From: Schmidtea nova
Taxonomy: Eukaryota
Assembly (NCBI GenBank): GCA_044892505.1
Contig: CM097884.1
Location: forward strand, 40,176,001 to 40,240,000
Length of the DNA: 64,000 nt
Direction: 5' to 3'
Part shown: positions 3,897-30,540 of the stretch, piece after piece
Numbering within the stretch: the stretch's first letter is position 1
How the letters are laid out: each line of letters opens with the position of its first letter
Program-made: the position numbers and the translations under genes
The notes under the pieces: generated by a model
What the model was told of the DNA's origin: nothing
The model's input: the letters and a program-made list of their open reading frames with translations, nothing else
The model's database searches: none

Positions 3897-4197
3897 AATA
3901 AAATCGATTAGTAATAAGTTTTAATAAATTTGTTTAAAATATTTATTTTGTATTAATTTGTGCGCGGGTTAACCGCTTAACAATCTCTTTTAAACAATGG
4001 GCAATAAAATATACAAATAATAAAATTTTTACACATTTAATAATTCTTTCGCATAATCCTAAACAATGTACAATAAAATTTACAAATAATAAAATTTTCA
4101 CATGACTAACAACCTTTTTACAACTCCGATTCACACAATTTCGGAGGTACATAAAACACGCATGAACATCTATTTATGGTGTCCAAAGAACATTACA
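2580..4197 (-). repeat. 3' LTR (1618 bp)
   Basis: Direct repeat of 9182-10799. Confidence 0.95.
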
Positions 4198-4200
4198 TTA

Positions 4201-4210
4201 CCCCCCATCC
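4201..4210 (-). promoter_or_regulatory. Polypurine tract
   Basis: GGATGGGGGG 3 nt before the 3' LTR on the minus strand. Confidence 0.7.
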
Positions 4211-4286
4211 AGTAACGCGGAGCGTTTTTCTTAAAAGAAAACAAAAAAAAGATTTTAGAGGTGTTAGTATTGGTGCCCGCTCTAAG

Positions 4287-7200: not shown

Positions 7201-7784
7201 TTAGGCATACCGTTATTGGTGACTATGACGTGTAGAAAAGAGGGAGTTTGTTTGTGATTGTTTGATCTCTTTTCGACGTTTGGGAACGTCTTTAGTAATT
7301 GTTGTATATAGCAAGGTGTGGCGGGTAAGACATTGAGGGCGTCGCTACAGAGGTGGTCAAGAACTTGAGCTCTAGGTGTGTGCTGTGAGAGGATTAATTT
7401 GCGTTCTCTGCAATCAGGGAGTAAACCTTCGGCATCAAGAAAATCGGCACCTAAGAGTGGATGAATCACCTCGGCGACTTGGAATGTCCATGAAAAAGTT
7501 TTGGACAGACCAGGAATTTGGAATATTAAGTTTTTTGTTCCAATAGTGGAAAAGTTTTCGCCACTGGCTGTCCGGAAGGACCTTTTTTGATTATTATCAA
7601 TTCCGAACCGATTAGGTAGGAATGAGATGATGGAACCGCTATCGATAACGAAGTGAATGGGGGCATCGACTTCATTAGAGTTCTGGGAATGAGGTACGGC
7701 GGGAACAGAAAAGAGTCCACAGGTTATGGGATCGCCATCAAAAACTGTGGGGGAGTTCGATGGCGTTTTCAGTTTTCCGAAGGC
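4287..7784 (-). CDS. pol: Pol (protease, RT, RNase H, integrase with GPY/F motif, Pro/Thr-rich tail), -1 frame relative to gag
   Basis: The frame is open from 7784, upstream of the track's start at 7469. Motifs: FVIDSG, YIDDIL, TTDAS, H..H/C..C, VHVDLVGP, TDQG, VERFHRTLK, RYEGPY. Confidence 0.93.
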   Translation of the reverse strand, partial: AFGKLKTPSNSPTVFDGDPITCGLFSVPAVPHSQNSNEVDAPIHFVIDSGSIISFLPNRFGIDNNQKRSFRTASGENFSTIGTKNLIFQIPGLSKTFSWTFQVAEVIHPLLGADFLDAEGLLPDCRERKLILSQHTPRAQVLDHLCSDALNVLPATPCYIQQLLKTFPNVEKRSNNHKQTPSFLHVIVTNNGMPNRERMRPLAPEKLTLVKEEFNKLLEAGTIHRSNSPWASPIHVVTKKDGSIRACGDYRRLNKVTIHDSYPMPLISDVLSRLPEATIFSTLDLKKAYHQIPVAPEDIPKTAVITPFGLFEYKYMPFGLRNAAQTFQRHIDNILGDKKYMVAYIDDILIGSKDATEHLEHIKEVFRLLHNNNLQINLDKCSFFQSEIKFLGHLVSTSGVRPLPERLDTIRNFSRPNTVSQMRSFLGTVNFCHRFIPRISEVTAPLSALCSGPKHSLLPWNDELERAFQSVKDAMSTAQSLSYIKNNLPLFLTTDASNIGIAGVLEQNNTGCQEKIEFFSRKLTTQEQRYSTFDRELLAIYESVRHFRYLLEGRSFSIQTDHKPLVHMMEMKTPSPRQGRQISYLSEFAFTITHLPGRQNIVADYLSRNLVATITTEPIFTDDVLRSLPPSPKDLSFFQNTTVFDKGIYYDNALSGNIRPILQEKLRREAFNHTHNLHHPGTSATYNLLRSRVIWPSMRQDVKDWCESCLGCQQHKIHRHTRPPLHNFPTGNRFEVVHVDLVGPLPPDNGYTHILTMLDRKTRFPVAVPLKSISAYIVASAIIEHWISIFGVPLHFITDQGPQFESHLFKQLSTQLGIKHLRTSTYHPQTNGAVERFHRTLKTSLRILSTSKNWTKALPFVLLGWRNTPSKTTGSSPAQLLFGTNVMLPNELVELNGEPTLENLADARNHFLSLDSNPNFSMSNTYKPYIPRSFDRATHVWIRSIADIGLKPRYEGPYSLLQILDNGTAKVSINGMDTIINLSRLKPAFGYMEEDPSPTNITSHAETQDFTPPNPPDPIQTHNLQRDNPTVVRLPQQFLSPPKLLPIKNEITPSLITNHPTTQLEIENPSPSTLQPIANQKQIPIQRTTQSSQPDNTWFIPATILDQQTQSTPTSKYTLKPILKSSNKIPKAQQIKKVRIAEWHRTKRIGENPNLPIRLSRTNDL
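7717..7778 (-). promoter_or_regulatory. -1 ribosomal frameshift signal (G_GAA_AAC plus predicted H-type pseudoknot)
   Basis: Gag/pol overlap is only ~5 codons. After a 6-nt spacer come stem CGCCATCGAA/TTTGATGGCG and loop CCACAG pairing with downstream CTGTGG. Confidence 0.7.
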
Positions 7785-10498: not shown

Positions 10499-10799
10499 AA
10501 TAAAATCGATTAGTAATAAGTTTTAATAAATTTGTTTAAAATATTTATTTTGTATTAATTTGTGCGCGGGTTAACCGCTTAACAATCTCTTTTAAACAAT
10601 GGGCAATAAAATATACAAATAATAAAATTTTTACACATTTAATAATTCTTTCGCATAATCCTAAACAATGTACAATAAAATTTACAAATAATAAAATTTT
10701 CACATGACTAACAACCTTTTTACAACTCCGATTCACACAATTTCGGAGGTACATAAAACACGCATGAACATCTATTTATGGTGTCCAAAGAACATTACA
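9182..10799 (-). repeat. 5' LTR (1618 bp), containing ~440 codons of ORF
   Basis: TGTAAT...ATATCA; direct repeat of 2580-4197. Confidence 0.95.
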
Positions 10800-12255: not shown

Positions 12256-13332
12256 TGTTCGGTTCGTATCAGTGGTTTACGACGAACACAGAAATATAAA
12301 TATATATTTGATACTTTAGTTTGATTATCGGACTCCAAACGATAATCCGCTTATTAATTATAAATAAATTATATGTTTTAGGTTGTGTGTAAAGAAAAAC
12401 AAGATCTAATTCCTTTTAATAATATGTATTGTGAAATATGTAAATCAATGTACAATATAATAAAATAGCTGCTAAGCAAAAGTTAGAGAATCGGTTATAC
12501 AAACCGTCCTAAGATGTTTAAGAACGAAAGCTGGACCTAAAAGGCTCAACAGCTCCGACTAAATGAAAGGACACAAGATGAGGGGTTTCCCTGTAGTTTA
12601 ACCGCGATAGTGACAACCCAGAATTGGTTGTCACTGTGACTTAATAATTTTCCCTTCTAATAATTTATTATTTAACGATTTTGCTGAAGGGGAAAAATAG
12701 TAATACAACTATTTCCCCGTGATCGATTTATAAGATTTAAAACAAAACTAGGAAAATTACCAGCTACTAAAGATTATTCCAATTTAGGGAAATTATCACG
12801 AACGAAATTCAAGCTAAGCTTCTTGTAATACTTCTGCCGTAAAATTAATTTCTCCAATTCACAAATTTGTCAAACTAAAATTCTAAAATTCACTTCGGTA
12901 AAATTTATGTTCTGTAAACACTTATGTTTCTCTCTCTACTTCTGTCAAAATTACTTTCTGTTTCAACTGATTTTGCAATCAGTTTATATACAAATTATTT
13001 TCTCTCATGTAGGTCTAGACGACCACCTATTACTAACTACGTGTAGGTCGAAATTGACCTTACAAAATATTACTTTTAAAGTAATTTATTATTACTATAT
13101 ATATCTTATTATTACTATTTAAATTTCTTATGTATTTATTTATTACTATATTTATTATATATTATTTAATTATTACTGTATTTAATCTATATTTATTTAT
13201 AGTAATTATTTATTTATTTTCTATTTATCTATCTATTTATAGTATTTTTTTTAATTACTATTTATATTTATTTATTTACTTATAATATTTAATTACAAAA
13301 ACCCCGAGATCCCTTGATCTCGAACCCTAACA
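12256..13332 (-). repeat. 3' LTR (1077 bp)
   Basis: Direct repeat of 26138-27214. Confidence 0.96.
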
Positions 13333-13334
13333 TG

Positions 13335-13344
13335 TCTTCCCCCT
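13335..13344 (-). promoter_or_regulatory. Polypurine tract
   Basis: AGGGGGAAGA 2 nt before the 3' LTR. Confidence 0.75.
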
Positions 13345-13627
13345 AACAAGATTTTCGTCCCGAAAATTAAAGCGGAAAAGACAAGAAGGTTCAGCAGCCA
13401 AAAATAAAAAAAATAAAACAACAACACATGCATATATACATAGAATGCACTTGGTCAAAATGAGTCTCATAAAACACATAATACATAATTAATGTTGATC
13501 ACAATCGATATCAAATAATAATTGTCTGTAAGCGTTGGATTGTTGATCACATAGCCGAAATGCTAATTGTTTGATTGATAGTTGTCATAGCTTATAGCTA
13601 GACCTTGAATTGAACGTAGCAGAAATG

Positions 13628-15592
13628 CTAGTTATCCTTCGCGAATAGGTTTTGAGCTGCTCTCTTGCGAATATGCGCTTGCTCGTTCTTGATGCGATCT
13701 TCCACTATATCTGGTCTATAGCTGACCACCAATGTTTCGCGTGTTTCGACTTCCTTATATACCAAAGACGAAATCACGTATGATTTTCCGTTGGCCTCCA
13801 ATACGCCATAGTAAGGGAAGTTTGAAACTGATGATTGGTGTACCGGTTTCCCGTCGTATTCTTTTATCCGAGGTACCCAATTTCTCTCTGGTCGCTGCCA
13901 AAAACTAGGGTCTTCATTGTCCAAATCCTGGGGTATCTTTGCTGAATTTCCCGTTCCAACGAAATCCCCTTCTCTTATAATAATAGGTTCGCCCTTAACC
14001 TCCGGAATCTGTTCCATATCGGGTGGGATGAATGCTGTTTCGATTAAATCTTTGTCTTCCGTCGAGATGGGATTTGGTACTTTCTTTTTGATCTTTAGAT
14101 CTTGTAACCTTACAACAGGTTCTTGACTTTTCTTTGGGGGTGACTTTTCTACTGAAGTCAATTTTTTAAAAGTCTTAGTAACTTTTTCCAAGAGCTTGTT
14201 CTCTTTCTTTGGTGGATTTTCTGGCACGATCTTTGTAATTGTACGGCTGTCTCCGTGTAAAGTTAAACGCATCTCTGTTTGCTCCTCACCCTCGCTTTCG
14301 CAGGTGGCGTAATCGTCTTCATCAGCTAAGGATATAGCTGGAGGGGATAGTGATTCTTCCTCAACTATCTTTTGCAATTTGGTTGATAATGGTTGTTCCT
14401 GGGGTAAGCTCTCAATAGCTTTCCTTTTACTCGTTTCTTGTGGCTGTATTGTATGAACCATTTTGACTTCTGATGTAATCGTCCCACTACGATTACCTGG
14501 GGTAATGTCATCTACCCAAACTTCTCTCAGTTTAAGGTAAATATTACGTGTCGTTTCCACGTCATTTTCCGTTTTCAGATCTGAACGGTTTAGTTCTTCT
14601 TTTTCGAGAATTGACTTTGATAAATACGCGAGTCGATAATGTCCGTTACATTTCTTTAGTTCTCTCGCTTCCAGGCATTTTGCTGCTCCTAGTTCTCTAA
14701 TGCCCAATACTCGTTGAGGGTGTAACTGGACTGCTTCCAAGAAATCGTTGACTTGGAGACCTATTAGAATTTTCCCATCACATAATTTTCTAATACGGTC
14801 TGCGCAATCCTCTCCATCAAATTGTCCGATGATTTCTTTTTCGGTCATACCATGCGCGTGCGATTGGTAATGTTTGACCTGGTTTCTGGGTGTAACCACC
14901 GTGTTTAGTATTAAATCACCACAGTAGTTTGCTATCGAAACAGCCACCAAAGCTGGCTTTAAATAATCTCGCAAAGTTGCGTAATGCGCTGCAACAAATA
15001 TTGACAATCTATCTTCTTGATTGGGGTGCAGATTCATCCGAACAAAGGATTTGAATGATTTGAGATCGTTCTCATTCACATTATAGGTCCAGGCAGGTTC
15101 ATTTTTCCACAATGATTGCACTGCCTTGCTAGGTTCCAAAATCTCTAATACCACAATAGTATTATATCCGTCACATTGGATGGAGATATTCTTTTCTCTG
15201 CCATCTCCGTTACTAATTTCTAGAGTTGATTCTGGTTGAAGTAGGATGGGTCCTGTGGCTCCTGCCATGAAGATTGTAAAGGGTTTATTGATCGCGTGAA
15301 TCAGGAGATGGTGAGTAAATGTTGATCTGTTAAATTCCGCCATGTGTTCAGTCAACCGGGTGTTCTCACGGCTGGTAATTGTGACTATGCACATTTGTCT
15401 CTTAGGCGATCCGAGAAACTTAAAATTGTTTGGGATGCCGGTGCAGTGCCCGTAATACCAATAGCGACGACCTTTCCGTGCTTCTGCGGATATCGCTTTT
15501 TCGATGTTTCGATAAATCAGTTTTTCCTTCTGTACTGTTTGCACATCGATAGTGCTATAACGCTGCTTGTATTGTGACACTTGATGCTTCAT
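13628..15592 (-). CDS. Accessory ORF2 with REX4/ISG20-like DEDDh exonuclease-fold domain (ExoI acidic residues absent); likely from a spliced mRNA
   Basis: ALVAVSIANYCGDLILNTVVTP..VKHY....HGM..KILIG..ENDVETTRNIY resembles REX4 motifs. A strong acceptor TTTTTCTTTCAG lies 2 nt before the ATG at 15592. Confidence 0.75.
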   Translation of the reverse strand: MKHQVSQYKQRYSTIDVQTVQKEKLIYRNIEKAISAEARKGRRYWYYGHCTGIPNNFKFLGSPKRQMCIVTITSRENTRLTEHMAEFNRSTFTHHLLIHAINKPFTIFMAGATGPILLQPESTLEISNGDGREKNISIQCDGYNTIVVLEILEPSKAVQSLWKNEPAWTYNVNENDLKSFKSFVRMNLHPNQEDRLSIFVAAHYATLRDYLKPALVAVSIANYCGDLILNTVVTPRNQVKHYQSHAHGMTEKEIIGQFDGEDCADRIRKLCDGKILIGLQVNDFLEAVQLHPQRVLGIRELGAAKCLEARELKKCNGHYRLAYLSKSILEKEELNRSDLKTENDVETTRNIYLKLREVWVDDITPGNRSGTITSEVKMVHTIQPQETSKRKAIESLPQEQPLSTKLQKIVEEESLSPPAISLADEDDYATCESEGEEQTEMRLTLHGDSRTITKIVPENPPKKENKLLEKVTKTFKKLTSVEKSPPKKSQEPVVRLQDLKIKKKVPNPISTEDKDLIETAFIPPDMEQIPEVKGEPIIIREGDFVGTGNSAKIPQDLDNEDPSFWQRPERNWVPRIKEYDGKPVHQSSVSNFPYYGVLEANGKSYVISSLVYKEVETRETLVVSYRPDIVEDRIKNEQAHIRKRAAQNLFAKDN

Positions 15593-15778
15593 ATCTGAAA
15601 GAAAAATAATTAACGTTAATATCAGATATACTGATAGGCCAATATTGGCTAAAAAGAAATGCATAAATCTCGATTTACGGGATCTACTTATGCTGTAAGT
15701 TAATGCTACTCGGAGCTCAACAAGATTATAGATTTTAATATATATATAAATACAAATATGCGATTTTATCTGTAATTG

Positions 15779-18700
15779 TCATAATCTCGTCATCATAATC
15801 CCATCAACCGACTCAATGGCCTGACTGAAGAATAGTTTCATCCAAACTCCCATTGCTATCAATGTAGTGATCATAGCTAATACTGCTGACGTAATAATCC
15901 ATACCCCAACGGGTAATTTTCCCAAGTGAGTAATGGGGTTTACTTCATTAACTTCACACTGACAACTTTTAATATAGCTTTCTGTTGATACTGTTGGTTT
16001 TACCATTTTCAATCCTTTCAATCTCTGCCATATTGCAGGATGAATGACGTAACTTTCTTTCCGTATCAATGATGTAACCGATTTCATTGTCGTCGATGAT
16101 TGTGGTAATTTCAAAGAGATAACTTCATAAAATACCTCATTCCATTCATCGACTCCTGGCTTTTGTTTATTATTCATATAAGTGATATGAGCTTCCCACT
16201 CCACTGAGCTGTTCCACTTGAGATTTTGTTTCTCAATATCTTCATTTAGCCACAATTCTTGTACTATTTCCTTGTCGGAATGGATTTCTATCTTTACTCT
16301 ATCCACTCCTTGTTTTGGTTGGCTGAAGGTAATCATACCTTGTTGGATATTTATTCTAACTTTCCTTTTGAAATCTGCTGTCTTCAACTTCCATTGTGAC
16401 TTTGAAAAATCTGACCATCGTCCAAACATAAAATGTTGAACAAGTATATCTAACAGATATTCCTTTTCTGCTCGTAAGTCCTTTATGACTTTCACTCTTG
16501 TGTTTGAATCCAATGTAAAATGGAAACAACGTCGTTCGCAAAACGAGAACTTGAATTTTGTATCATTTTCAGCTAATGATATTATCCTAAATTCCTGGAA
16601 AGATCTTCTAAATGCGAGATCTTGAATTTGTACCGCTGTTGGAACAAATGTCTTTACACAGGATATAAGGCAACTTATTATTACCAAAAACGTAACTGAT
16701 TTTGGCACGCCTCTTGATCGTAATGGATATCTGTCTGAGACTGGTTCTGACCCTTTATCCTCCTTTTTCTTAATCGGATCTTTCTCCGTGACCGCAACTT
16801 TCTTGCATCTGTTAGCATGTACCATTATTGGTTCAGCTTTTCTATTTGCTACTAATTGCAAGATTAAATTCGTGTCTGTGGTTCTCAAAACCTCATATGG
16901 TCCTTTGAAGTTTCTCATTAATTTAGGTGATAAGCCCTTTTTATTATAATGGCTTTCCAACATCACCTTGTCTCCAACTAACATGCCATGTCCTTTGGCT
17001 TTCTTATCATGATAATCTTTCGACGCTTCCTGACTGAATTTTATACTAAGACCTGCTTTTGTCCATGCTTCTTGCATTCTTTCTCTCATTTCCATGAGAT
17101 AATCCTCTTGGTCTAAATACTGCGTTGCTTTTGGGAAAAACAACAAGTCTATAGGCATTTTACTTTGCCTTAAATACATGAGATAGAACGGCGTTTGTCC
17201 CGTACCCTCATGAACAGCATTTCTGTATGCGAATAGGCATGATGGAATATGTATATCCCAATCCGTTTGCCCTGAATTTACGTATGATGCTAGCATATTT
17301 GCGAGCGTTCCGTTAAATCTCTCTACCAATCCGTCTGTTTGTGGATGGTATGGAGAGGTATTCAGTTTTAAAATGTCGAAATAATCATTTATTCCTTTTA
17401 GCAGATTACTCATGAAATCTGCTCCTCTATCTGTTAGTAGTTTTGTAGGTACTCCATACCTAAAAACAATTTGCTCTACGAAAATCCTGGCTATCGTATC
17501 GGCCTTGTGATTCGGTATCGGATAAGCCTCCGGCCATTTCGTCAAGTAATCGCAAAATACCAATATGTATTTGTTACCACTATTTGACTCTTTGAATGGC
17601 CCTAAAACATCCATTGCCGTCATTTCCATCGGTGTGGATGGTACTGGCATTGGTTTCATTGGCACATGCGGTTTCTTCCCCGTATTTCTCCTGGTGATAC
17701 AGATCTTACATGTCTGACACCATTCCTGTACGTCTTGTTTGATTGTCGGCCAGAAATATTTCTGCTTCAACCTTGACAATGTTTTCCTGGAAGACAAATG
17801 CCCTCCCAGTGCTCCATCATGATATTGTAACATCAAAGCTTCGCGATATTTCTTAGGGACCATTATGACATTATCCCTTACGTCTACATATTTGACTAAT
17901 CCTTCTTCTAGAATAAATTTGTCTCGATTTTTCTCCCAATATTTATTAAATTCCGTCGGTATGAACTTTGCTTCTAAAGCCTGTCTGATTTGGTTTATCT
18001 CTTCATCCGATTGTTGTGCTGCCATTAAATCCGCGAGTCTGTTTGCTTCTCTTGTAAGTGCGAAGATTGTTCCTTCTAATCTTCCTTCCTTAACGTCTTC
18101 TGCTTCATCACCCTGGTCCATTCGAGAAAATGCATCTGCATTCCCATTTTGGTGTCCTTTTCGGTAATGTATTTCGATGTCGTATGGCTGCAAGATCAAT
18201 GCCCATCTAACCAATTTTGATGTGTCCATAGTATGCTTTGTTAACCACTGTAATGGTCTATGATCCGTATACACAATGATCTTTCGACCCCATAAATATG
18301 TCCTGAATTGGTGTATAGCATACACAATTGCTAATGCTTCTAATTCGATAACTGCGTAATTCATTTCATGTGGTTTTAATCCTCTGCTAGCATACGCTAT
18401 GGCATATTCGTCTCCTAGGTCATCTCTTTGACCTAACACAGCACCAATACCCCGAGTGCTGGCGTCCGTCATGACCAAAAATTGTTTCTCAAAATCTGGA
18501 AACCGTAATATAGGAGGTTCCACGAGCATCCTCTTTAGCATATCAAATGCTTCCTGTTGTTCTTTTCCCCATACAAATTTGACATTTTTGCCCTCTAATT
18601 GTGTCAGAGGAAATGCTATTGCCGAAAAGTTCCTGATGAACTTTCTATAATATCCCACTAAGCCCAAAAACCCTTTTATATGTTTGACTGTCTTTGGCTC

Positions 18701-21700
18701 TGGAAAATTCTTTGCTTTCTCAACATTTGCTGGATCTGGTTTTACTCCATCCTTCGAGATAATGTGACCGACATAGACTACCTCTGATTCGGCCCATTTA
18801 CATTTCGATGGTTTTACCTTAAGATTTGCATTAATTAACCTTTTGAATACGTCCTCTAAATGTTCTAAATGTTTTTCCAAATCTGGAGAAAATACTATGA
18901 TGTCATCTATGTATACCATTGCATGATGAACATCCATTAACATTAGATTCATGGCTCTTTGAAACGTTGCCGGCGCTCCTGTGAGACCAAATGGCATTAC
19001 TGTATATTCGAAGTGTCCAAGGCTTGTAGAAAAAGCCGTAATTGGTATTGTCTCCTCTTTTAACTTGATTTGGTAAAATCCCTTCTGAGCATCCATCACT
19101 GAGAAATATTTTGAATTTCTCATGCGTCCGTAAATGTAATCCAGTAATGGTAATGGGTGACTATCCTTGCAAGTTGCTTCGTTTACCATTCGATAGTCGT
19201 TGCATAGTCGTACCGTTCCATCCTTTTTGGCCACCACTATCATTGGTGACTGGTATGGTGATTTACTATGCCTGATGATGTTATGTTTTAACATCAGTTT
19301 TACCTGCTTATCGACAGGTTCTTCCAAGCTAAACGGAATTCGATACGGTCTCAGTTTTATTGGTTTCGTGTTGTTAAGAACAATTTCATGTTCCAACAAG
19401 TTCGTCTTTCCCAGATCATATTCGTGCTTGGCGAATACTTGATCATATTTTCTTAATAACATGTTGACTTGGATATTCTCTCTTCGTGAAAGAGCTTTGC
19501 TATTTGCCGTTGGCGCATCATAGTACTCGATGTCTGATTCTCTATTTTCTGCCTTTATTGTCAGGACAGATCCTCCATTTGGTAATTGATCCGACTTTGA
19601 TACTCTCCCTACTCTTGTATCTGGGTACAATTTTAATGGTTTTATATCTAAATTGGCTACCCGAATTGGTATTCTGCCATTTTCAACTTTACCAATGCTA
19701 TGCGTAATTGGTAGATTATATTTTGCTGAGAACCTTTCATCTGGTTCGAATACAACTTCTCCTTCCCACTGTTCGCTAGTGGACACGAAACATACTGTTT
19801 CTGCTCTGGGTGGTATTATCATCGTATGGTCGATGAAAACTGTATCATCATTATAAACTTTTCTTTTCTTACCGATTGATCTAACTAACAATCCGGTAGC
19901 ACAGTCAAATACAACTCCTTTTAATCTTCTTAAAAGATCCATTCCTAGTAGACATTCTACTGGACAAGTTCTCATGACTATAATATCATGACGAAATTCT
20001 TGGTCACATAGCTTGATGTTACAAGCTAGAGTACCAATAATATTCAATGATGTGCCTGTAGCACCTGTTAGCGAAACTCTTGAGGTTTCCATTGATTCCA
20101 ATTCTTTTTGATTTAATAGTGTTGCCTCTATGATGGTGCCGTCTGCTCCTGAATCTATCACTGCATTAACTGTGTGTCTGTTTATTTTTATCTTTATCAT
20201 GGGTTTCTTATCCAAGTTCACCCCATTTGCCATCAAAATAGTAGCATGCGTTATCCCGATGGTATTTGCTCTGAATTTCTCTGCTTCATCTTGTTCGGTA
20301 TCACTCAATTTTGGATTATATTCCTTAAATTTAGCTTTTATTGCTTCTAACGACTCGATAGGATACAGTTTCCCTTCATTTTCTAACGATAATGATATGC
20401 TTTTACCAGTCTCTCGAGCATCTTTGTCGAGAATTTGTTGATGTTTAGAAATGTACATTTTGTTTCTTGGAGTGGTTAAAGCATAATTTTGTTTGCCCTC
20501 TCCTGATGTCTTTTGAAACTCTGGCGATTCCCCCTTTGGCGCTGTTGGCAAGCTTCTAAGATATGGTAATTGCATATATCTTGGGCTTCTTTTCAATCTA
20601 GGTGATGCTGTATTGATTGTAAATTTCTGGTCTGCACTATCGTATTCATCTTCTGAAATCATACTTTTGTCGAAAATCTGTTTTGTCGCTTCGTAAGGTG
20701 GTTGATAATCCCGATATTTCATTTTCCTTAACTGATGATTCGGTTTTTTATTGTAGTTTCTTTTTCGACTTCTACTTTGCCTCTGAACTGTATTAAGAGA
20801 GTCTCCATTACCTCCTCCTTCCGAATTGTTATCGTCCCGATAACTTGTATTACCCTCCATTTCGATTCCAATAATCTCGTGTTTTACCAAGCTTCTCTGT
20901 TTGATTGTCTTTATTTCTTTACGATGATGTTTAAACAATGCAAATTCCGCACACATAGGACACAATCCTAGTATCAACTTCCAAGACCATCCACCGATTT
21001 TGAATATACTGTATGTGGAGATTAATTGTGTTATTATTAACTTTAGAATTACGAATATTGCATATATTCCTGAGCAGCCTGCCACGAAAATACCAAAATT
21101 GGTAAACCTTCCCCATATTTTCATCATCACATTTTTAGCTGCTTCTTTATAATGATCTGGACCGAATAATAAATTGTAATCTGGTCTCATTTCGTTTGCT
21201 TGGTAAATTGTTCTTATGATTTCAGTGATACCTCTTTCTCTTACTTGAGGGAATAGCAATGTCTGTCTTGCCTCCTCAATGTCTGCTGAAGTGTAAATTC
21301 CTCCTTGTGATAATTCATCGAGTGATTTAAATTCCATGTTTTCCTCGAGTTTCGTGACTTCCAATGTTTCCACCTTTCTATTAGATGGTTTTCTGTCAGG
21401 TAATGAGATCCATCTATCATTTACCTTGTATAACGGTGATATTGCTGGATTGCAAATTGAAGGTTGAGGCTTTTGTTTTTCATCCAAAAGTCTCCTCGTA
21501 ACTGGCATTACAAATCGTATTTTGTTTTGATATGACACTGGTAATTCTAGAGTACATTCATTATACCGAGTTAATTGTACCTCTATGGGTTGACATTGAT
21601 AGCTGTATATAGCTTCCCCCATAATTCTGCCAAACATTCCATCTTCTAGCAACATAGGTGTCACTAGATCCGGATTCACAATTGATATCGCTAATCGATT

Positions 21701-24700
21701 TCGAACTATTTCGCGATTTAGTTTGCAATCATTGAGTATTACTTCCTGATACATTTCCTGCATTTGTCCTTGCAGATCATGATATAAATAATCTATTTTA
21801 TTATTTATATAGTTCGTGATTTTGATATCCTGGCTGTGAATATTCTTGGCTTTTTGGATGAATGTTTTTGACAAATATAATCCTTTATAGTTGGTCTCAT
21901 ACACCACTTTTCCGCATTTTGTCTTCTTATCTTTTCTGACAAATCTGATTGCATCTTTCTTATCTTCTGATACTAATACTAGAGGTGTGATTTCCTCACT
22001 AATATCCTCTTTTTGCTGTTTGTTGATCCTTTTCAACGTCTTTTCTTTATCCCAAATTCTTTCTCTTTTGGGTAAATCTCGATACTTTGTCCCGTTCAAC
22101 TTATGGAAATTAATTTTCTTTAGTAATGACAATTCGCAATGGTCTAGTATTTGATCGTATAATAATGTAATGACCCCTGTTCTGCAGCTTCCAAATTTCG
22201 CAAGGCACTGAGGGTGTGCCATTAATCTTCCTGATAATACATCGAACGTTCCTTCGTATTCTCTTAATTCGATTGAATAGTCCTCGATATCTACGACAAA
22301 ACTTACCAACTCCGATCCGCGAGTTTTCTTTCTTCCCGTACAGGTACCATCTGATCCGATTGATCCTCCTCGTGTAATGGTTACTCCCAGTGTTTTTCCT
22401 ACTTCCGCGGCGATGGTTACCTCGTTATCGATTCTTAAAGTACCTTTTCGAAAGGCGTCTAGACAATCCTCTGGCAATATGTTGACAGGTCTAGGTATTA
22501 GAGTGGCTGATAGAAAAGCTGTATAGCTGTGTGAACCACAATAATATTCAAACGTTGCTCTTTGGACTCTACATTCTCTTATCTTAGTTCTGAAGAATTC
22601 ACTTTCTTGGTAGACATAGTATTCGACCTTTTCTCCTGTTTGGACCTTTTCTGGATATGCCTCTTTGCACTCAATTGCATCTACGAGCGAATATATCCGA
22701 GCTAACTTTGGATCACTGCAATCAAACGCTGTCATTGTGTTTGTCTGTTTCATTATCCCCATCATTACTAAAAACATTAATATCATATTCGTCATATTCC
22801 CCATTCCTCCATTTTCGAGGTGGTTGTTATTCATAGCCTCTTCCACAAATTCATATCGTGGTTTATGTTTCTCCTCTTCCCAGAAATTATTTTCACTCAT
22901 CCACGTTCCGAGATAATGCTCCGTTATCTCCGTGATCTGGTCTATTTCTCGATTAATAAGCTTCTTCTCATTGCCTGCGCGGGCTAAAGCATCTTGAATC
23001 AACATAGATAATGCTGTCACTATTTTTCCTTTAGATAACCCATCTTGTATGAGTGTCTCTAACATACTCTGTATCTCGTTTTGCGGTACCCCTCTAGGTA
23101 ATCTCCTCATCGTCTTCGCGATTGACTGTGTTACTTTATCCACTTGAATTCCTTTAATCCGAGTAATCTGCCATTCTGGCTTTAATATTCCTATGATCTG
23201 TTTTAATCTCTTCCATGTCAGAGATTTTTCTGGTATATGTACACCTTCGTCTCTCATATCAACATCCCTGGCTATTCCTGACAGAGTTTTCATCTGAACC
23301 TGTTTAATGGTTTCTTGGTTTAATTGCTCCGTTGGTGGAGGTTTCATTTGATCTTTCCTAGGCCTTCCTCGCCTATCTTTCTTTGTCTGCCATGCTGGCC
23401 TGATAGTTTCTACCGCCTGAGAAGTTGAAGCTCCCACGTTAGTTTCCTCATTATTGAGTCTGATTTCCTCTTCTCCGTGATTATCGGCATCGATATCTAC
23501 ATTAAATGGTTGTGTTTCAACATTACCAGTGACCATTTCATCTGGTAACCGTAATGCTGACCATTGAGATTCAGGTGGCTCTACGGGAATGATTGCTACC
23601 GTTGTAGTTTCAAAAGGTAGACATCCCACATCTACTAAATATTCATCATCATCCACTTGTCCTCCATGAATCATAATCAAGAATATACCGGTAGTCTGCC
23701 CAGTATCTATTAAATCCTTTCTCAACGTTATCACTTTGCTAAAACAACGATATAACCTCGTCATGGGTTCTTTTCCCGATATTCGAATGTCTAAAGTTAT
23801 CATGCCTTGTCGATGTGCTTGATGACGTATTGCTGTTCCATTTTTTCTCATTAACATTTTTATTTCTGTTTGAAAAGAACTAGTTTCTTTTACTACAGGT
23901 AGTAATATAGGAATTATATTCTCCAATGATTCTACTGGTATGCGCAATACCAACATCCAGTCTAATATTTCCTTGATTGTTTCTCCATCCCTCGGAGATT
24001 TCTGCAGCTCTATCTTCAGACGTTGCTCTATTTGTTGGACCTCCTCCAACTGTGCAATTTCCATTTGTGTGAGTAGAAACACACTGTCTTGATCCACTAC
24101 TGGGACCGATATTCCTGTCAGTTTCGTTGTGAGTTTCGTTACCCTTCCTGGTAATACACCATTTTGTAGTAGTGTTTCCCCAACTACTAACTTTTCTCCA
24201 TATAAATAAAAATCATATCTATTATGTTTCAATTTCATCATTGTATCTGACAACTTATCTGTTCGACATCTTACATTCATGTCGATGTTAAACTCCTGCT
24301 CCTGAGGAAGTTTTATGTTTAAATGCGAATCCTGAAGATCCCATTCATGCTCCATTGCAGTTCCTATCTTTCGTAGGATTTTATGTATGTCGCTATTATA
24401 CCTTGGATCATCTTCGACCTGAGATATTAATTGTAATATCTTTCCAATTTCACTATTCTTGATATCACCTTGTGATAATTTCTCTAATTCTCTAGTCAGT
24501 CTCTGCTGATACTCATATCTGGAATCCACCAGTTTTAAACATTTTGCTAGGGTATCTGACCCTTTCTTGGCCTTTGTTTCCTTGAACAAAGCCTGGTCGA
24601 ACTCGCTCAGTATGGTACTCATACTGGGTTCGTCATCATTATCAGAATTTGTCTCTGATTCTATTACCTCATGATTCTCGCTGCTGGAATCCATGGGTTC

Positions 24701-26056
24701 ACTATTTCCTTGCTCATCTGTGTAAGCATCATGATTTTTCTCAGCTGAAATCATCAAAACTGTTCCTTGCCCAACTGTGTGAGCATCATCGCTTTCCTCA
24801 ATGGGATTCATTATAACTGTTCCTCGCCCATCCATGTGAGCATGATTTTTCTCAGCTGAAATCATAAAAACTGTCTCTTGCCCAACTGTGTGAGTCTCAT
24901 TTATTTCTTCAATTTTATTCATCAAAACTGTTCCTCGCTCATCTGTGTGAGCATGATTTTTCTCAGCTGAAATCATAAAAACTGTATCATCTCGATCCAT
25001 TAGCCGTGCTAATCGATTTTTCTCCTCCTGGATTTCCATTTCCAGTTGTTGCAAATACGTCAATTCTTTATCGTGATTGACCATGAACGTAGTTTTCGGC
25101 TTGCTGACATTACCACTATTGGTAATCCTACTATTCGTATTATTACTCTGATTTTGAGGACACGACCTCAGAATATGCCCGAATTTTCCACATCCGTGAC
25201 ATTTTATCTTCCCTGATGAATTCACATCATCCCTTTTAATATTAAAATTCCCATTCGTTGGGAGATTCCTAACTCTACAAACGGAAGCAACATGCCCTCT
25301 GCGTTTGCATTTATCACACTGCAAGTTCGTGACTCTACAGTTCTCAACACTATGATTATTCATACCACATTTAGTACACTGAATACCCCTACGAGTATCA
25401 GCTACCTTCTTACTGTGGCAATCTTTTGATATGTGCCCTTTCTTATGGCAGTTAAAACATTCAATTGCTGGCTTCTCATTATTTACCATAAATGATGTAG
25501 CTTTTTCTAAGCTGCTTTCGATTACGACAGCTTTTCTTGTTAATTCCCAAAAATCATCTCCCGTGTGGAGAATCAATGCATTTCTCATTACATTTGTGAA
25601 TCCAGCTAATAATTGGTCTTTAACCATAGCTTTAGTTGCATCATTCCAGGTAGTTCTGAGCCCAAATGCTCTTTCTGCTAATAACAATAATTGATAGGAA
25701 AATTCTCCTACATGTTCATTTGCATTCTGCTTCCTGTGATAAAATTGTTGTCGGAAAATTCTACTTGAATCTCCCGGTAATATTCTAGCCGTTAGTGATT
25801 CTCTCATCTTTTCCCATGTACCTGGTTTATCTGCTGCTGGTAACGCCATAATATCATTGTAATTTTCCCTTGCCATACCCTTAAGGTAAATTGGCAGTCT
25901 TTGTATCATTATTGCATCTGGATACCCATAGGCCTTTGCCATCTGATAATACTCTGACATAAACTCCGGAAATTCCCCTGGATCTCCGCTAAATGCCTTG
26001 ACAGGTAAAGCGGGATATCTAGCAAAAACATTATTCTCTTCAGCCATGTCCTCCAC
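15779..26056 (-). CDS. gag-pol: 3425-aa polyprotein: Gag (CA, 4 CCHC), repeats, 2x(helical+Ubl), AT-hook, chuvirus/gB-like glycoprotein, protease, RT, RNase H, integrase, second membrane protein
   Basis: Four CCHC knuckles (~25160-25460), RGRPRK, hydrophobic signal then AFDC (~22720), TM (~20930-21100), VIDSGAD, YIDDII, MTDAS, HHCC, DDE core, YPLRSR plus signal, C-terminal TM. Confidence 0.93.
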   Translation of the reverse strand: MEDMAEENNVFARYPALPVKAFSGDPGEFPEFMSEYYQMAKAYGYPDAIMIQRLPIYLKGMARENYNDIMALPAADKPGTWEKMRESLTARILPGDSSRIFRQQFYHRKQNANEHVGEFSYQLLLLAERAFGLRTTWNDATKAMVKDQLLAGFTNVMRNALILHTGDDFWELTRKAVVIESSLEKATSFMVNNEKPAIECFNCHKKGHISKDCHSKKVADTRRGIQCTKCGMNNHSVENCRVTNLQCDKCKRRGHVASVCRVRNLPTNGNFNIKRDDVNSSGKIKCHGCGKFGHILRSCPQNQSNNTNSRITNSGNVSKPKTTFMVNHDKELTYLQQLEMEIQEEKNRLARLMDRDDTVFMISAEKNHAHTDERGTVLMNKIEEINETHTVGQETVFMISAEKNHAHMDGRGTVIMNPIEESDDAHTVGQGTVLMISAEKNHDAYTDEQGNSEPMDSSSENHEVIESETNSDNDDEPSMSTILSEFDQALFKETKAKKGSDTLAKCLKLVDSRYEYQQRLTRELEKLSQGDIKNSEIGKILQLISQVEDDPRYNSDIHKILRKIGTAMEHEWDLQDSHLNIKLPQEQEFNIDMNVRCRTDKLSDTMMKLKHNRYDFYLYGEKLVVGETLLQNGVLPGRVTKLTTKLTGISVPVVDQDSVFLLTQMEIAQLEEVQQIEQRLKIELQKSPRDGETIKEILDWMLVLRIPVESLENIIPILLPVVKETSSFQTEIKMLMRKNGTAIRHQAHRQGMITLDIRISGKEPMTRLYRCFSKVITLRKDLIDTGQTTGIFLIMIHGGQVDDDEYLVDVGCLPFETTTVAIIPVEPPESQWSALRLPDEMVTGNVETQPFNVDIDADNHGEEEIRLNNEETNVGASTSQAVETIRPAWQTKKDRRGRPRKDQMKPPPTEQLNQETIKQVQMKTLSGIARDVDMRDEGVHIPEKSLTWKRLKQIIGILKPEWQITRIKGIQVDKVTQSIAKTMRRLPRGVPQNEIQSMLETLIQDGLSKGKIVTALSMLIQDALARAGNEKKLINREIDQITEITEHYLGTWMSENNFWEEEKHKPRYEFVEEAMNNNHLENGGMGNMTNMILMFLVMMGIMKQTNTMTAFDCSDPKLARIYSLVDAIECKEAYPEKVQTGEKVEYYVYQESEFFRTKIRECRVQRATFEYYCGSHSYTAFLSATLIPRPVNILPEDCLDAFRKGTLRIDNEVTIAAEVGKTLGVTITRGGSIGSDGTCTGRKKTRGSELVSFVVDIEDYSIELREYEGTFDVLSGRLMAHPQCLAKFGSCRTGVITLLYDQILDHCELSLLKKINFHKLNGTKYRDLPKRERIWDKEKTLKRINKQQKEDISEEITPLVLVSEDKKDAIRFVRKDKKTKCGKVVYETNYKGLYLSKTFIQKAKNIHSQDIKITNYINNKIDYLYHDLQGQMQEMYQEVILNDCKLNREIVRNRLAISIVNPDLVTPMLLEDGMFGRIMGEAIYSYQCQPIEVQLTRYNECTLELPVSYQNKIRFVMPVTRRLLDEKQKPQPSICNPAISPLYKVNDRWISLPDRKPSNRKVETLEVTKLEENMEFKSLDELSQGGIYTSADIEEARQTLLFPQVRERGITEIIRTIYQANEMRPDYNLLFGPDHYKEAAKNVMMKIWGRFTNFGIFVAGCSGIYAIFVILKLIITQLISTYSIFKIGGWSWKLILGLCPMCAEFALFKHHRKEIKTIKQRSLVKHEIIGIEMEGNTSYRDDNNSEGGGNGDSLNTVQRQSRSRKRNYNKKPNHQLRKMKYRDYQPPYEATKQIFDKSMISEDEYDSADQKFTINTASPRLKRSPRYMQLPYLRSLPTAPKGESPEFQKTSGEGKQNYALTTPRNKMYISKHQQILDKDARETGKSISLSLENEGKLYPIESLEAIKAKFKEYNPKLSDTEQDEAEKFRANTIGITHATILMANGVNLDKKPMIKIKINRHTVNAVIDSGADGTIIEATLLNQKELESMETSRVSLTGATGTSLNIIGTLACNIKLCDQEFRHDIIVMRTCPVECLLGMDLLRRLKGVVFDCATGLLVRSIGKKRKVYNDDTVFIDHTMIIPPRAETVCFVSTSEQWEGEVVFEPDERFSAKYNLPITHSIGKVENGRIPIRVANLDIKPLKLYPDTRVGRVSKSDQLPNGGSVLTIKAENRESDIEYYDAPTANSKALSRRENIQVNMLLRKYDQVFAKHEYDLGKTNLLEHEIVLNNTKPIKLRPYRIPFSLEEPVDKQVKLMLKHNIIRHSKSPYQSPMIVVAKKDGTVRLCNDYRMVNEATCKDSHPLPLLDYIYGRMRNSKYFSVMDAQKGFYQIKLKEETIPITAFSTSLGHFEYTVMPFGLTGAPATFQRAMNLMLMDVHHAMVYIDDIIVFSPDLEKHLEHLEDVFKRLINANLKVKPSKCKWAESEVVYVGHIISKDGVKPDPANVEKAKNFPEPKTVKHIKGFLGLVGYYRKFIRNFSAIAFPLTQLEGKNVKFVWGKEQQEAFDMLKRMLVEPPILRFPDFEKQFLVMTDASTRGIGAVLGQRDDLGDEYAIAYASRGLKPHEMNYAVIELEALAIVYAIHQFRTYLWGRKIIVYTDHRPLQWLTKHTMDTSKLVRWALILQPYDIEIHYRKGHQNGNADAFSRMDQGDEAEDVKEGRLEGTIFALTREANRLADLMAAQQSDEEINQIRQALEAKFIPTEFNKYWEKNRDKFILEEGLVKYVDVRDNVIMVPKKYREALMLQYHDGALGGHLSSRKTLSRLKQKYFWPTIKQDVQEWCQTCKICITRRNTGKKPHVPMKPMPVPSTPMEMTAMDVLGPFKESNSGNKYILVFCDYLTKWPEAYPIPNHKADTIARIFVEQIVFRYGVPTKLLTDRGADFMSNLLKGINDYFDILKLNTSPYHPQTDGLVERFNGTLANMLASYVNSGQTDWDIHIPSCLFAYRNAVHEGTGQTPFYLMYLRQSKMPIDLLFFPKATQYLDQEDYLMEMRERMQEAWTKAGLSIKFSQEASKDYHDKKAKGHGMLVGDKVMLESHYNKKGLSPKLMRNFKGPYEVLRTTDTNLILQLVANRKAEPIMVHANRCKKVAVTEKDPIKKKEDKGSEPVSDRYPLRSRGVPKSVTFLVIISCLISCVKTFVPTAVQIQDLAFRRSFQEFRIISLAENDTKFKFSFCERRCFHFTLDSNTRVKVIKDLRAEKEYLLDILVQHFMFGRWSDFSKSQWKLKTADFKRKVRINIQQGMITFSQPKQGVDRVKIEIHSDKEIVQELWLNEDIEKQNLKWNSSVEWEAHITYMNNKQKPGVDEWNEVFYEVISLKLPQSSTTMKSVTSLIRKESYVIHPAIWQRLKGLKMVKPTVSTESYIKSCQCEVNEVNPITHLGKLPVGVWIITSAVLAMITTLIAMGVWMKLFFSQAIESVDGIMMTRL
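24715..24995 (-). repeat. In-frame 111-bp tandem repeat (MISAEKNH units)
   Basis: ctcagctgaaatcat recurs at ~24740, ~24851 and ~24962. Confidence 0.85.
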
Positions 26057-26116
26057 AACTTTTGTCTTTTTAGGAGCTATTTTGTTTATAACAATATGCC
26101 CACTGATAATAATTGT

Positions 26117-26134
26117 ATCACGTCGGGCTCACCA
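26117..26134 (-). promoter_or_regulatory. Primer-binding site, tRNA-Trp type (18 nt)
   Basis: Plus strand ATCACGTCGGGCTCACCA matches the eukaryotic tRNA-Trp 3' end ATCACGTCGGGGTCACCA at 17/18. Confidence 0.85.
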
Positions 26135-26137
26135 AAA

Positions 26138-27214
26138 TGTTCGGTTCGTATCAGTGGTTTACGACGAACACAGAAATATAAATATATATTTGATACTTTA
26201 GTTTGATTATCGGACTCCAAACGATAATCCGCTTATTAATTATAAATAAATTATATGTTTTAGGTTGTGTGTAAAGAAAAACAAGATCTAATTCCTTTTA
26301 ATAATATGTATTGTGAAATATGTAAATCAATGTACAATATAATAAAATAGCTGCTAAGCAAAAGTTAGAGAATCGGTTATACAAACCGTCCTAAGATGTT
26401 TAAGAACGAAAGCTGGACCTAAAAGGCTCAACAGCTCCGACTAAATGAAAGGACACAAGATGAGGGGTTTCCCTGTAGTTTAACCGCGATAGTGACAACC
26501 CAGAATTGGTTGTCACTGTGACTTAATAATTTTCCCTTCTAATAATTTATTATTTAACGATTTTGCTGAAGGGGAAAAATAGTAATACAACTATTTCCCC
26601 GTGATCGATTTATAAGATTTAAAACAAAACTAGGAAAATTACCAGCTACTAAAGATTATTCCAATTTAGGGAAATTATCACGAACGAAATTCAAGCTAAG
26701 CTTCTTGTAATACTTCTGCCGTAAAATTAATTTCTCCAATTCACAAATTTGTCAAACTAAAATTCTAAAATTCACTTCGGTAAAATTTATGTTCTGTAAA
26801 CACTTATGTTTCTCTCTCTACTTCTGTCAAAATTACTTTCTGTTTCAACTGATTTTGCAATCAGTTTATATACAAATTATTTTCTCTCATGTAGGTCTAG
26901 ACGACCACCTATTACTAACTACGTGTAGGTCGAAATTGACCTTACAAAATATTACTTTTAAAGTAATTTATTATTACTATATATATCTTATTATTACTAT
27001 TTAAATTTCTTATGTATTTATTTATTACTATATTTATTATATATTATTTAATTATTACTGTATTTAATCTATATTTATTTATAGTAATTATTTATTTATT
27101 TTCTATTTATCTATCTATTTATAGTATTTTTTTTAATTACTATTTATATTTATTTATTTACTTATAATATTTAATTACAAAAACCCCGAGATCCCTTGAT
27201 CTCGAACCCTAACA
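26138..27214 (-). repeat. 5' LTR (1077 bp)
   Basis: Direct repeat of 12256-13332. Confidence 0.96.
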
Positions 27215-27218
27215 ATAT

Positions 27219-28833
27219 TATAAAGTCATCTTTGATGTTAAAGTTGGATTTTTGAAAATTTTCGCAAGTAACATAATTAATTGCAGCATCTAGCTCTGCT
27301 TCCAACGAAACTGGTGCATCCGTGTTCAAATCTACATGTTCTGGTGAAGATGAAGGTGATATAGATGAAGAAGATTCAAAAAGTCTAGCAAACAGATTAG
27401 ATGCAAATTCCAAAACAATTTTTGATGGTTTTATAGAGTTATTGGTGAGACATGCCAGAGTATCAATAATGGTAGAGTTTTCTCGTTCTATCATCCGTCG
27501 TTCGATATTTAATTTTAATATACTACAGATCACGTCATTACATTCATTCAATTTGTTGTACAGAAAATTCATCGCTCCCTTTGCTGTTAATAAATTGGCG
27601 TCTTGTCTCCGCCATTGTTTCAACAGCTAATGTTAATGGTTTTATTGCATTCATTAAGCTGGACAATTTTTCGAAATCTATTCCAGATACTAGGTACAGT
27701 GCATTTTATTCGATGAGCGTGTTTTGAATTGGAATTCGAACTCTGAGTAGTTTTTCTAACATAGGATGAATAGAATTCCACCTGTGTTTAACATCCAGTT
27801 GAAGTTCTAGTTCCTGCCCAATTTCATCGATAATTTTCTTTTGTAAAATTGAATTTCGAACACTAGATTTTTTCAAAAACTTAATCAAAATCCGCACGTT
27901 CTTCAGATTTTTTTGTATGTCGACATCTTCATCATCTGCGAATTCTTCTTCATTAACATCATCATCATCGAAAAATTCATTGTCTTGGAAGTCGTCATCA
28001 TCTTCTTCTTCTATAATGTCAACATCATTCGATTCAAAAACTTTCTTTTTATAAAATGTTTCAACTACCGCCAAATGCAGCCCGTGACATAAACATAACT
28101 GTGATTCAGATGGACAATCTCTCCCATACTTCACCATTACGCTGGCACCATCATTTGTAGTACGAACGATGTCGTTTTGGAACGACAAATTAAACAACTC
28201 CAAAGGCTTGGTTACAATTTCTAACACTACAGCTGCAGTACACGAACCAGTAGCTCTCACAAAACCTAGATTGTGGCGATTTCCATTATTTCCATGTACA
28301 TTAATATTAATAAAGTGACGATTTCGTGCACTTACCCACTCATCAAAGGTTATACTAAACTTACCACCATCATTTTTAATTGTTGTTAATTTTTTTATTA
28401 CCTCTTGTTTTCTATTTTCGAATTCAGTATGAATAAGGCGCATAACACTGTTTTCACTTTTTGGTAGGTTATATCCTCTGTCTACAAAAGATTGTCTGAT
28501 AAACTTGGAATTAGTAATTGCACGAATTGTTTTTCCGTCTTCAGCAGCTAATCTTGAAACAATCTCACTTAAACTTTGCCGTTTAACAAAATCCATCATC
28601 GTATTTCCTTTGATTTTCTTGAAGTTTTGCTCTTGCTCCCCCAAAACGGAATCATCATTATCCCGTTTACAATGGATTTTGTGTACCAGTTTCAGATGGT
28701 TTAGCATACCACCTGTGCTTCCATTACTATTTGAAATAAAAACCATACACTTTAAACACTGAGCTTTGGCAACTTTTTTATTGGTAGAAGGAATTTTTTT
28801 TAAATATTCCCAAACAGGAGCTGATGGTGCCAT
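27219..28833 (-). pseudogene. hAT transposase (BED finger, catalytic core) with premature stop at 27706 and frameshift near 27620
   Basis: VWEY..C..C..H..H BED finger, SITFDEW, TTNDGASV, CLCHGLHL, LDVKHRWNS, RQDANLLTA. A possible 66-nt 5' intron lies at 28837-28902. Confidence 0.88.
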
Positions 28834-29349
28834 GGGCTAAATAGTAGTACAATATAAATTTAATACAAGTTTTACGGTGAAAAAGAAATTAATTATAATT
28901 ACCTTTGATTTTTTTCAATTCTTTGATTTGAAAGCTTTACTAACAATTTCGCAATAACAAATTTTATCGATTTTTTATTCTATTTAAAATTTTATTCTAT
29001 ACATAATTTAAAATAATTTTCACTATCCGATAATCGCGAGTATATTTGAGCGGATACCGAATACGGATTTTTGTCTGCAAATTCGCGGATATCGGATACA
29101 GATAATCCGAACCGTCAAACTCTACTCTTAAAACAAAAAAAACAAACATTAATTCAACAACATTTATTACTACAGATAAATCAAATCAATACACAAAACA
29201 ATTCAGTCATTAATACACAGAAAATTCAATTATTGTTATTCATCGTATTGAGTTTCGTCACGGTCGCTCCTTGGATGGTATTTGATGTTGCCTTAACCCT
29301 TTCGTCGGCAAGCATCTGTTTCAACTGTAAGCGCCTTTGTGCATGGTAT

Positions 29350-30540
29350 TTTCTTTGGGCTTGTATTTATTGGGTCAGTATTTTATTTATTTGGTCAGTA
29401 TTTTTTTTAATAATTGGTCGGTATTTTATTAAATAAAATATCAGTATAAAATAATATTTTGGTCGGTATAAATAATTAAGTGTCAGTATATTATCCTGGC
29501 TGATAACAGTATAAATAATAAATATTAATAAAATTAATTACCTTCTTAAATTTTGAATTTTATTCTAATTTATGGCTTGTATTTATTGGGTCAGTATTAT
29601 TTGGTATTATTTNNNNNNNNNNNNNNNNNNNNNNNNNNNNNNNNNNNNNNNNNNNNNNNNNNNNNNNNNNNNNNNNNNNNNNNNNNNNNNNNNNNNNNNN
29701 NNNNNNNNNNNNNNNNNNNNNNNNNNNNNNNNNNNNNNNNNNNNNNNNNNNNNNNNNNNNNNNNNNNNNNNNNNNNNNNNNNNNNNNNNNNNNNNNNNNN
29801 NNNNNNNNNNNNNNNNNNNNNNNNNNNNNNNNNNNNNNNNNNNNNNNNNNNNNNNNNNNNNNNNNNNNNNNNNNNNNNNNNNNNNNNNNNNNNNNNNNNN
29901 NNNNNNNNNNNNNNNNNNNNNNNNNNNNNNNNNNNNNNNNNNNNNNNNNNNNNNNNNNNNNNNNNNNNNNNNNNNNNNNNNNNNNNNNNNNNNNNNNNNN
30001 NNNNNNNNNNNNNNNNNNNNNNNNNNNNNNNNNNNNNNNNNNNNNNNNNNNNNNNNNNNNNNNNNNNNNNNNNNNNNNNAATATACTGACACTTAATTAT
30101 TTATTAAATATTTATAATTATTATTAATTATTATTAATTATTATTAATTATTATTAATTATTTATAATTATTAAAAATACTGACCAAATAAATAAACCCC
30201 ATCATTTTATTTTATACTGATATTTTATTTAATAAAATACCGACCAATTATTAAAAAAAATACTGACCAAATAAATAAACCCCTTAAATACTGACCAATT
30301 ATTAAAAAAAATACTGACCAAATAAATAAACCCCTTTTGGCTGACACTTAATTATTTATTAAATATTTATAATTATTATTAATTATTATTAATTATTATT
30401 AATTATTATTAATTATTTATAATTATTAAAAATACTGACCAAATAAATAAACCCCATCATTTTATTTTATACTGATATTTTATTTAATAAAATACCGACC
30501 AATTATTAAAAAAAATACTGACCAAATAAATAAACCCCTT
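29350..30540. repeat. AT-rich modular inverted/tandem repeat (AATACTGACC sub-units) flanking an assembly gap
   Basis: Parts of 29380-29492 are the reverse complement of 30080-30104 and 30205-30280; 30086 and 30341 begin two tandem copies. Confidence 0.75.
29613..30079. other. Assembly gap (467 N); the three ORF-track entries spanning it are artefacts
   Basis: Run of N. Confidence 0.99.

Follow-up and report, generated by a model that had tools for sequence, protein, structure and literature searches.

Burro and GYPSM1 retroelements of planarian flatworms are described in the available part of PMC6431247 as combining a CCHC gag with a Ubi2/SUMO-like domain (PF11976), a BCL2 domain and a mononegavirus-type envelope protein (env) placed between gag and pol in the same frame, and as also carrying MATH, BIR and ankyrin cargo, for which meddling with apoptosis and ubiquitination has been proposed. 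In passages of other studies, the IAP cargo of Burro1 is reported to be anti-apoptotic and to protect stem cells (PMC13465017, citing another study), Burro transcripts go up on PIWI knockdown (PMC8532177), and in arthropods no glycoprotein of this type was found to have been clearly captured by a Gypsy element (PMC10084718). A Burro-like, env-bearing and recently active Gypsy retroelement, of the kind known from planarians, occupies the minus strand at 12256-27214 (14,959 bp) of a 64,000-nucleotide stretch of Schmidtea nova DNA (contig CM097884.1, 40,176,001 to 40,240,000; hereafter the window). Between gag and env it encodes a cassette consisting of a helical bundle plus ubiquitin-like domain (Ubl), present once or twice depending on the family, an AT-hook-type motif, a Bcl-2-like domain and a hydrophobic tail. 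There is direct support for the fold of each Ubl, for homology to Bcl-2, for the order of the domains, for purifying selection and for a conserved AT-hook core; on balance, the cassette is probably released as a single host-modulating accessory protein.

As in Burro1-4 and GYPSM1, one open reading frame (ORF) holds CCHC gag, Ubi2/SUMO-like and BCL2-like domains, an in-frame env, and protease (PR), reverse transcriptase (RT), RNase H and integrase (PMC6431247, as far as its available part goes). Pfam matches along the gag-cassette-env-pol ORF (15779..26128, first Met at 26047) run from CCHC gag through an unannotated insert to a Monjiviricetes-type fusion glycoprotein, PR, RT, RNase H and integrase. 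However, the described elements exceed 30 kb and encode 4873-5140 amino acids (aa), whereas the present ORF has 3449 codons, and neither ORF of the element gives a Pfam match to MATH, BIR or ankyrin. Since it is half the size and without this cargo, the element is classed as Burro-like, not as Burro proper. The Burro account in the part of PMC6431247 available does not mention paired Ubls that each follow a helical bundle, nor an AT-hook-type motif, a membrane domain after the integrase or an exonuclease-like second ORF. MATH, BIR and ankyrin cargo is present in other repeats of this genome (G000, whose loci are given L-numbers): in a high-copy repeat on G000:C1 (L083-L084, L088-L089), protease-ankyrin, RING-TRAF-MATH and 399-codon BIR-RING frames stand in series, as Burro-type cargo, and L083:8421-9998 weakly matches the helix+Ubl unit (iE 2e-5).

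The element in the window has two helix+Ubl units; like all element features below, they lie on the minus strand. Bundle 1 (24353..24556, aa 525-592), a diverged copy of bundle 2, is modelled as three helices with a predicted local distance difference test score (pLDDT) of 85-90, and is followed by Ubl 1 (24113..24334, aa 599-672), identified by its model and structure matches. Bundle 2 (23822..24067, aa 688-769) has four modelled helices and precedes a ubiquitin/SUMO-like domain 2 (23579..23806, aa 775-850). The original prediction, made from the sequence, of a tandem helical domain plus Ubl within the polyprotein proved real, with every motif it quoted found where it had been placed, and the beta-grasp fold it assigned to both Ubls was recovered in predicted models and structure searches. 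A C-terminal di-Gly was sought in the last 20 aa of 14 Ubl units and none has GG, so they are read as integral Ubl domains and not as cleavage signals or modifiers. Each helix+Ubl unit may be pictured as a non-conjugated protein-binding adaptor. Single-sequence searches with the window's modules alone were blank. A profile of eight second units ranked five of six first units over all 200 shuffles; homology between bundles 1 and 2 is clear in L037 and L038 and weak in the window's clade for the helical part alone, where the reversed window sequence scored nearly as high.

An AT-hook core is defined as RGRP with basic flanks. The motif RRGRPRK (23354..23374) lies in a disordered linker (pLDDT < 50); RGRP occurs once in the polyprotein and arose in 11 of 2000 shuffles of the insert. 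The AT-hook-like motif of the original prediction is borne out by the retention of this core in place, between the last Ubl and Bcl-2 in five of eight subfamilies of this genome, and, as a GRP core with basic flanks (KGRP in one case), downstream of the unit in 6/11 long relatives from outside it. It is directly followed by a Bcl-2-like domain (22871..23311, aa ~940-1086) that had been overlooked earlier and was recognised by profile and by the Pfam matches of sister copies, which exceed the Pfam Bcl-2 cut-off; a profile of eight rows of this region matches Bcl-xL at E 2e-6. Next comes a hydrophobic helix (22751..22795, aa 1112-1126), detected by hydropathy and, from its position, likely to double as the tail anchor of Bcl-2 and the signal sequence of env, and then env itself. 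Like viral Bcl-2-like proteins (canarypox CNPV058) and viral Ubls (pestivirus, giant-virus), the cassette places host-derived apoptosis and ubiquitin folds on a virus-like element; unlike them, it is in frame within a retroelement polyprotein, and its Ubls are without di-Gly.

Diverged copies, and the Pfam families for env and Bcl-2, served as queries to collect relatives. A search of this genome with aa 505-855 gave at least 117 listed matches, from 116 scored of 1731 candidates; among the matches listed, at least 108 are 84-100% identical and at least 26 are part of open frames no shorter than 3400 codons (manual count). Eight subfamilies are distinguished, with the window, L024, L022, L023, L037, L038, L045 and L046 as their representatives; where it was measured, their RT-RNase H is between 75% and 44% identical to that of the window. 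The order of the cassette is the same in all eight examined, with two helix+Ubl units in six and one in two. Every module shows nonsynonymous divergence (dN) far below synonymous divergence (dS), for example 0.10-0.20 vs 0.9-2.0 between L022 and L023, and on these substitution rates all cassette modules are under purifying selection. Among 1.84 billion proteins, 139 match the unit profile with an E-value of at most 0.001; the majority are polyubiquitin-like repeats matched over the Ubl half only, and the helical part is included in 22 stretches of 20 proteins. Eight unit-bearing proteins among the 24 outside proteins scanned have gag, CCHC or env Pfam matches, and a Bcl-2 match lies downstream of the unit in 4/11 long ones; ten that were looked up are singletons from ENA or JGI assemblies. 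The co-occurrence of the unit with gag/CCHC/env and Bcl-2 in such distant proteins indicates that the cassette is old and tied to this element class.

How the cassette might be released is suggested by a T-x-hydrophobic-M/A word, found nine times in the polyprotein vs 1.2 expected. Its sites are the border of capsid and nucleocapsid, a position after the nucleocapsid, five positions in tandem repeats ahead of the cassette, and the positions before PR and before integrase; there are zero occurrences within aa 505-1132. The five sites (aa 382-456) belong to 54/57-nt tandem repeats (24673..24985) directly ahead of the cassette, where cleavage is putative. Upstream is Gag (25160..26047), with a capsid region and CCHC knuckles (Pfam zf-CCHC; 32-35% identity to the gag of sister families), and downstream, ahead of pol and in the same frame, is env (20903..22732), a fusion glycoprotein of mononegavirus/chuvirus type (PF24664 E 5e-89). 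The element's protease would cut at the repeated candidate sites before aa ~460, and signal peptidase would cut ahead of env at aa ~1133, to give a ~670-aa protein on which the env signal helix remains as a Bcl-2-style tail anchor. The Bcl-2 part could dampen cell death or immune signalling and the helix+Ubl units could recruit proteins, while the basic motif, if another cleavage releases the soluble part, may bind AT-rich DNA or direct nuclear import. The accessory, host-modulating character proposed originally is supported by purifying selection, by the adjoining Bcl-2-like domain and by the match to the Burro cargo layout in the available part of PMC6431247.

Several observations weigh against release as a host-modulating protein. 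The protease word was taken from the same sequence, which makes its enrichment count partly circular. The window's Bcl-2 domain taken alone has an E of 0.025, short of the Pfam threshold, and a degenerate BH1-like word; an anti-apoptotic role can therefore not be taken for granted. No AT-hook occurs in L037, L038 and L046 (3/8 subfamilies) or in 5/11 outside proteins (some truncated), and a DNA-binding motif on a membrane-tailed protein would require an extra cut or a location at the nuclear envelope. The cassette could instead be structural, a matrix-like spacer that joins Gag to the membrane and env in particle assembly and uses captured host folds as scaffolding. Its position in frame between nucleocapsid and env, with a membrane helix at its end, would suit such a role, and for bundle 2 the ESM Atlas lists short pieces of gag with scores of 0.79-0.80, at the level of a lead only. 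However, a helical profile scored the elements' own capsid regions within shuffle range (5/5), with an hhalign probability of 0.08%; Gag and the cassette are set apart by five repeats of the candidate cleavage word; and the number of units is one or two depending on subfamily. A structural spacer is therefore improbable.

The origin of the helical bundle is a separate question. TFIIS N-terminal domains (TNDs) form a family of ~80 aa, all-helical domains that bind TND-interacting motifs (TIMs) via two pockets and a basic patch, according to the available part of PMC9987994, and the integrase-binding domain (IBD) of LEDGF has four long helices and a short helix 3 (PMC3185499, seen in part). Bundle 2 likewise has four helices, whose lengths suit the IBD pattern; helix lengths and size are also compatible with the TND family, and there are weak in-register profile signals with the TND proteins of this genome. 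In its model, however, the short helix 3 is not separate and the loop between helices 4 and 5 is shorter. A 14-row helical profile scores the LEDGF-like IBD of this genome, chosen independently by Pfam, at 15.4 bits, above 1000 residue and 1000 block shuffles, with a gapless register over helices 1-4, and a 36-row profile scores it at 12.4 bits, where the best of 224 natural control windows reaches 6.2. With hhalign, the 36-row profile aligns in register with a host TFIIS-like set at P 6e-4 and with a LEDGF-like set at 5e-3, and Bcl-2, IWS1-like and reversed sets give P 0.10-0.16. Other results are less favourable. A profile from the 22 outside rows alone gives the LEDGF-like IBD 4.1 bits, a score reached by 37/500 block shuffles; a second LEDGF-like exon of this genome scores within shuffle range; seven TFIIS-like sequences reach 7.6 bits at most, not above their reversals; and bundles taken from the clade of the window give no score for the LEDGF-like IBD. 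A first hhalign of bundle vs TND gave 0.6%, no TND appeared for the bundle in the PDB sequence search or the ESM Atlas listing, and no TND chain is among the structure matches listed, which are filled by Ubl chains and, over the bundle region, are helical-repeat proteins. A TFIIS-N/IBD origin of the bundle stands at about an even chance. The host LEDGF/HRP2-like gene lies at L080 (G000:C1:106583000-106588000), its IBD split across two exons; another LEDGF-like exon is in L071/L081, and 27 near-identical short Med26/TFIIS-N-domain frames form an array at G000:C1:216191207-216252340, mostly ~1.2 kb apart (manual count).

Two readings of the cassette diverge on this origin. If the bundle is unrelated to TFIIS-N, the helix+Ubl unit might be a cytoplasmic ubiquitin/SUMO-pathway decoy, or a proteasome/p97 adaptor, on a membrane-anchored Bcl-2 protein, with RGRP only a basic trafficking or RNA-binding signal. 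This is a tentative possibility, less favoured by the in-register alignment of the deeper profile with host TFIIS-like and LEDGF-like sets over controls, and by retention of the exact RGRP core, beyond mere basic charge, across very distant families. Alternatively, in a whole clade of env-bearing Gypsy elements a domain of TFIIS-N/LEDGF type may have been captured, joined to a Ubl and retained next to an AT-hook. The outcome would be a TND adaptor, carried on a Bcl-2 tail, that docks on TIM-bearing host elongation or chromatin factors to protect or guide the provirus; this is conceivable, though doubtful.

The original prediction went on to suggest an element-encoded integrase cofactor. As a LEDGF mimic, the IBD-like bundle would bind the element's integrase and the AT-hook would tether the integration complex to chromatin. 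LEDGF/p75 and HRP2 do resemble the cassette in having an AT-hook-type motif in a disordered linker together with a small bundle, with four long helices and IBD-like spacing, and the two features co-occur in LEDGF (PMC3185499, in its available part); the helical profiles described above score the LEDGF-like IBD above controls. However, the element is without PWWP, with no match in polyprotein or insert, and differs in domain order and in the Ubl fused behind each bundle. In LEDGF, the contact with integrase is made by two residues of the helix 1-2 loop, Ile365 and the essential Asp366, and its binding is confined to lentiviral integrases, as stated in the part of PMC3185499 available. A hydrophobic residue plus Asp at the matching loop columns occurs in 0/36 rows, in a register that rests on the LEDGF string of the original prediction, and this genome's own LEDGF-like domain is also without such a pair. 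The integrase here is a Gypsy enzyme, the 22 outside homologs alone give the weak profile score noted above, and the cassette ends in a predicted membrane helix ~1,600 aa from the integrase. The cofactor suggestion is therefore not supported and such a role is unlikely; a full LEDGF mimic appears very improbable.

The remainder of the element follows the Ty3/Gypsy plan. The 5' LTR (long terminal repeat; 26138..27214) and 3' LTR (12256..13332) are identical over 1077/1077 bp and have TG...CA termini, and ATAT borders the element at both ends, likely a 4-bp target-site duplication; together these indicate a recent insertion. A primer-binding-site-like 18-mer starting TGG (26117..26134), its role suggested by sequence, lies 3 nt inside the 5' LTR, and a purine tract (13333-13344) precedes the 3' LTR. 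Protease, RT, RNase H and integrase (17159..20212; Pfam RVP, RVT_1, RT_RNaseH, Integrase_H2C2, rve) are in Ty3/Gypsy order, with PR and RT matches more than 200 aa apart and no Pfam match between them (the Burro dUTPase-like region needed HHpred in PMC6431247). The post-integrase domain (15866..16708), ~250 aa between two hydrophobic helices seen by hydropathy, has no Pfam match, is 27% identical in the L056 family and is possibly a second membrane protein. ORF2 (13628..15778) continues in the same frame after the polyprotein stop and has an ISG20L2-like exonuclease-fold stretch (aa 276-423; PDB 7yw5, E 5.6e-5), which may be inactive because the first acidic catalytic motif looks lost by eye.

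Elsewhere in the window, a second, unrelated Gypsy element (2578-10799; RT-RNase H 36% identical) is bounded by 1620-bp direct repeats of 99.9% identity; a 468-codon frame lies almost entirely within the repeat, and a 917-codon gag frame starts inside it. Short inverted and tandem repeats (29382-30540) surround an N stretch (29613-30079), and hAT-type transposase pieces (zf-BED, DUF659, weak hAT dimerisation match) lie at 27706-28836 on the minus and 52681-53802 on the plus strand.

Burro-type elements were already known to carry Ubl, Bcl-2 and env. The helix+Ubl unit and the AT-hook as fixed parts of a cassette were not found in the literature searched, and primary Burro descriptions may already note them. 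What had been loosely annotated as Ubi2/SUMO-like cargo is resolved here into a fixed unit of helical bundle and Ubl, of which some families have a second copy, and families with compact 15-kb elements lend themselves to study more readily than 30-kb Burro. As the unit occurs together with Bcl-2 and the AT-hook-type motif even in very distant relatives, it has the character of an old, selected accessory gene and not of junk. If the bundle is not a TND, this adds detail to a known class of element; if it is, these elements would encode their own copy of a domain that lentiviruses hijack from the host.
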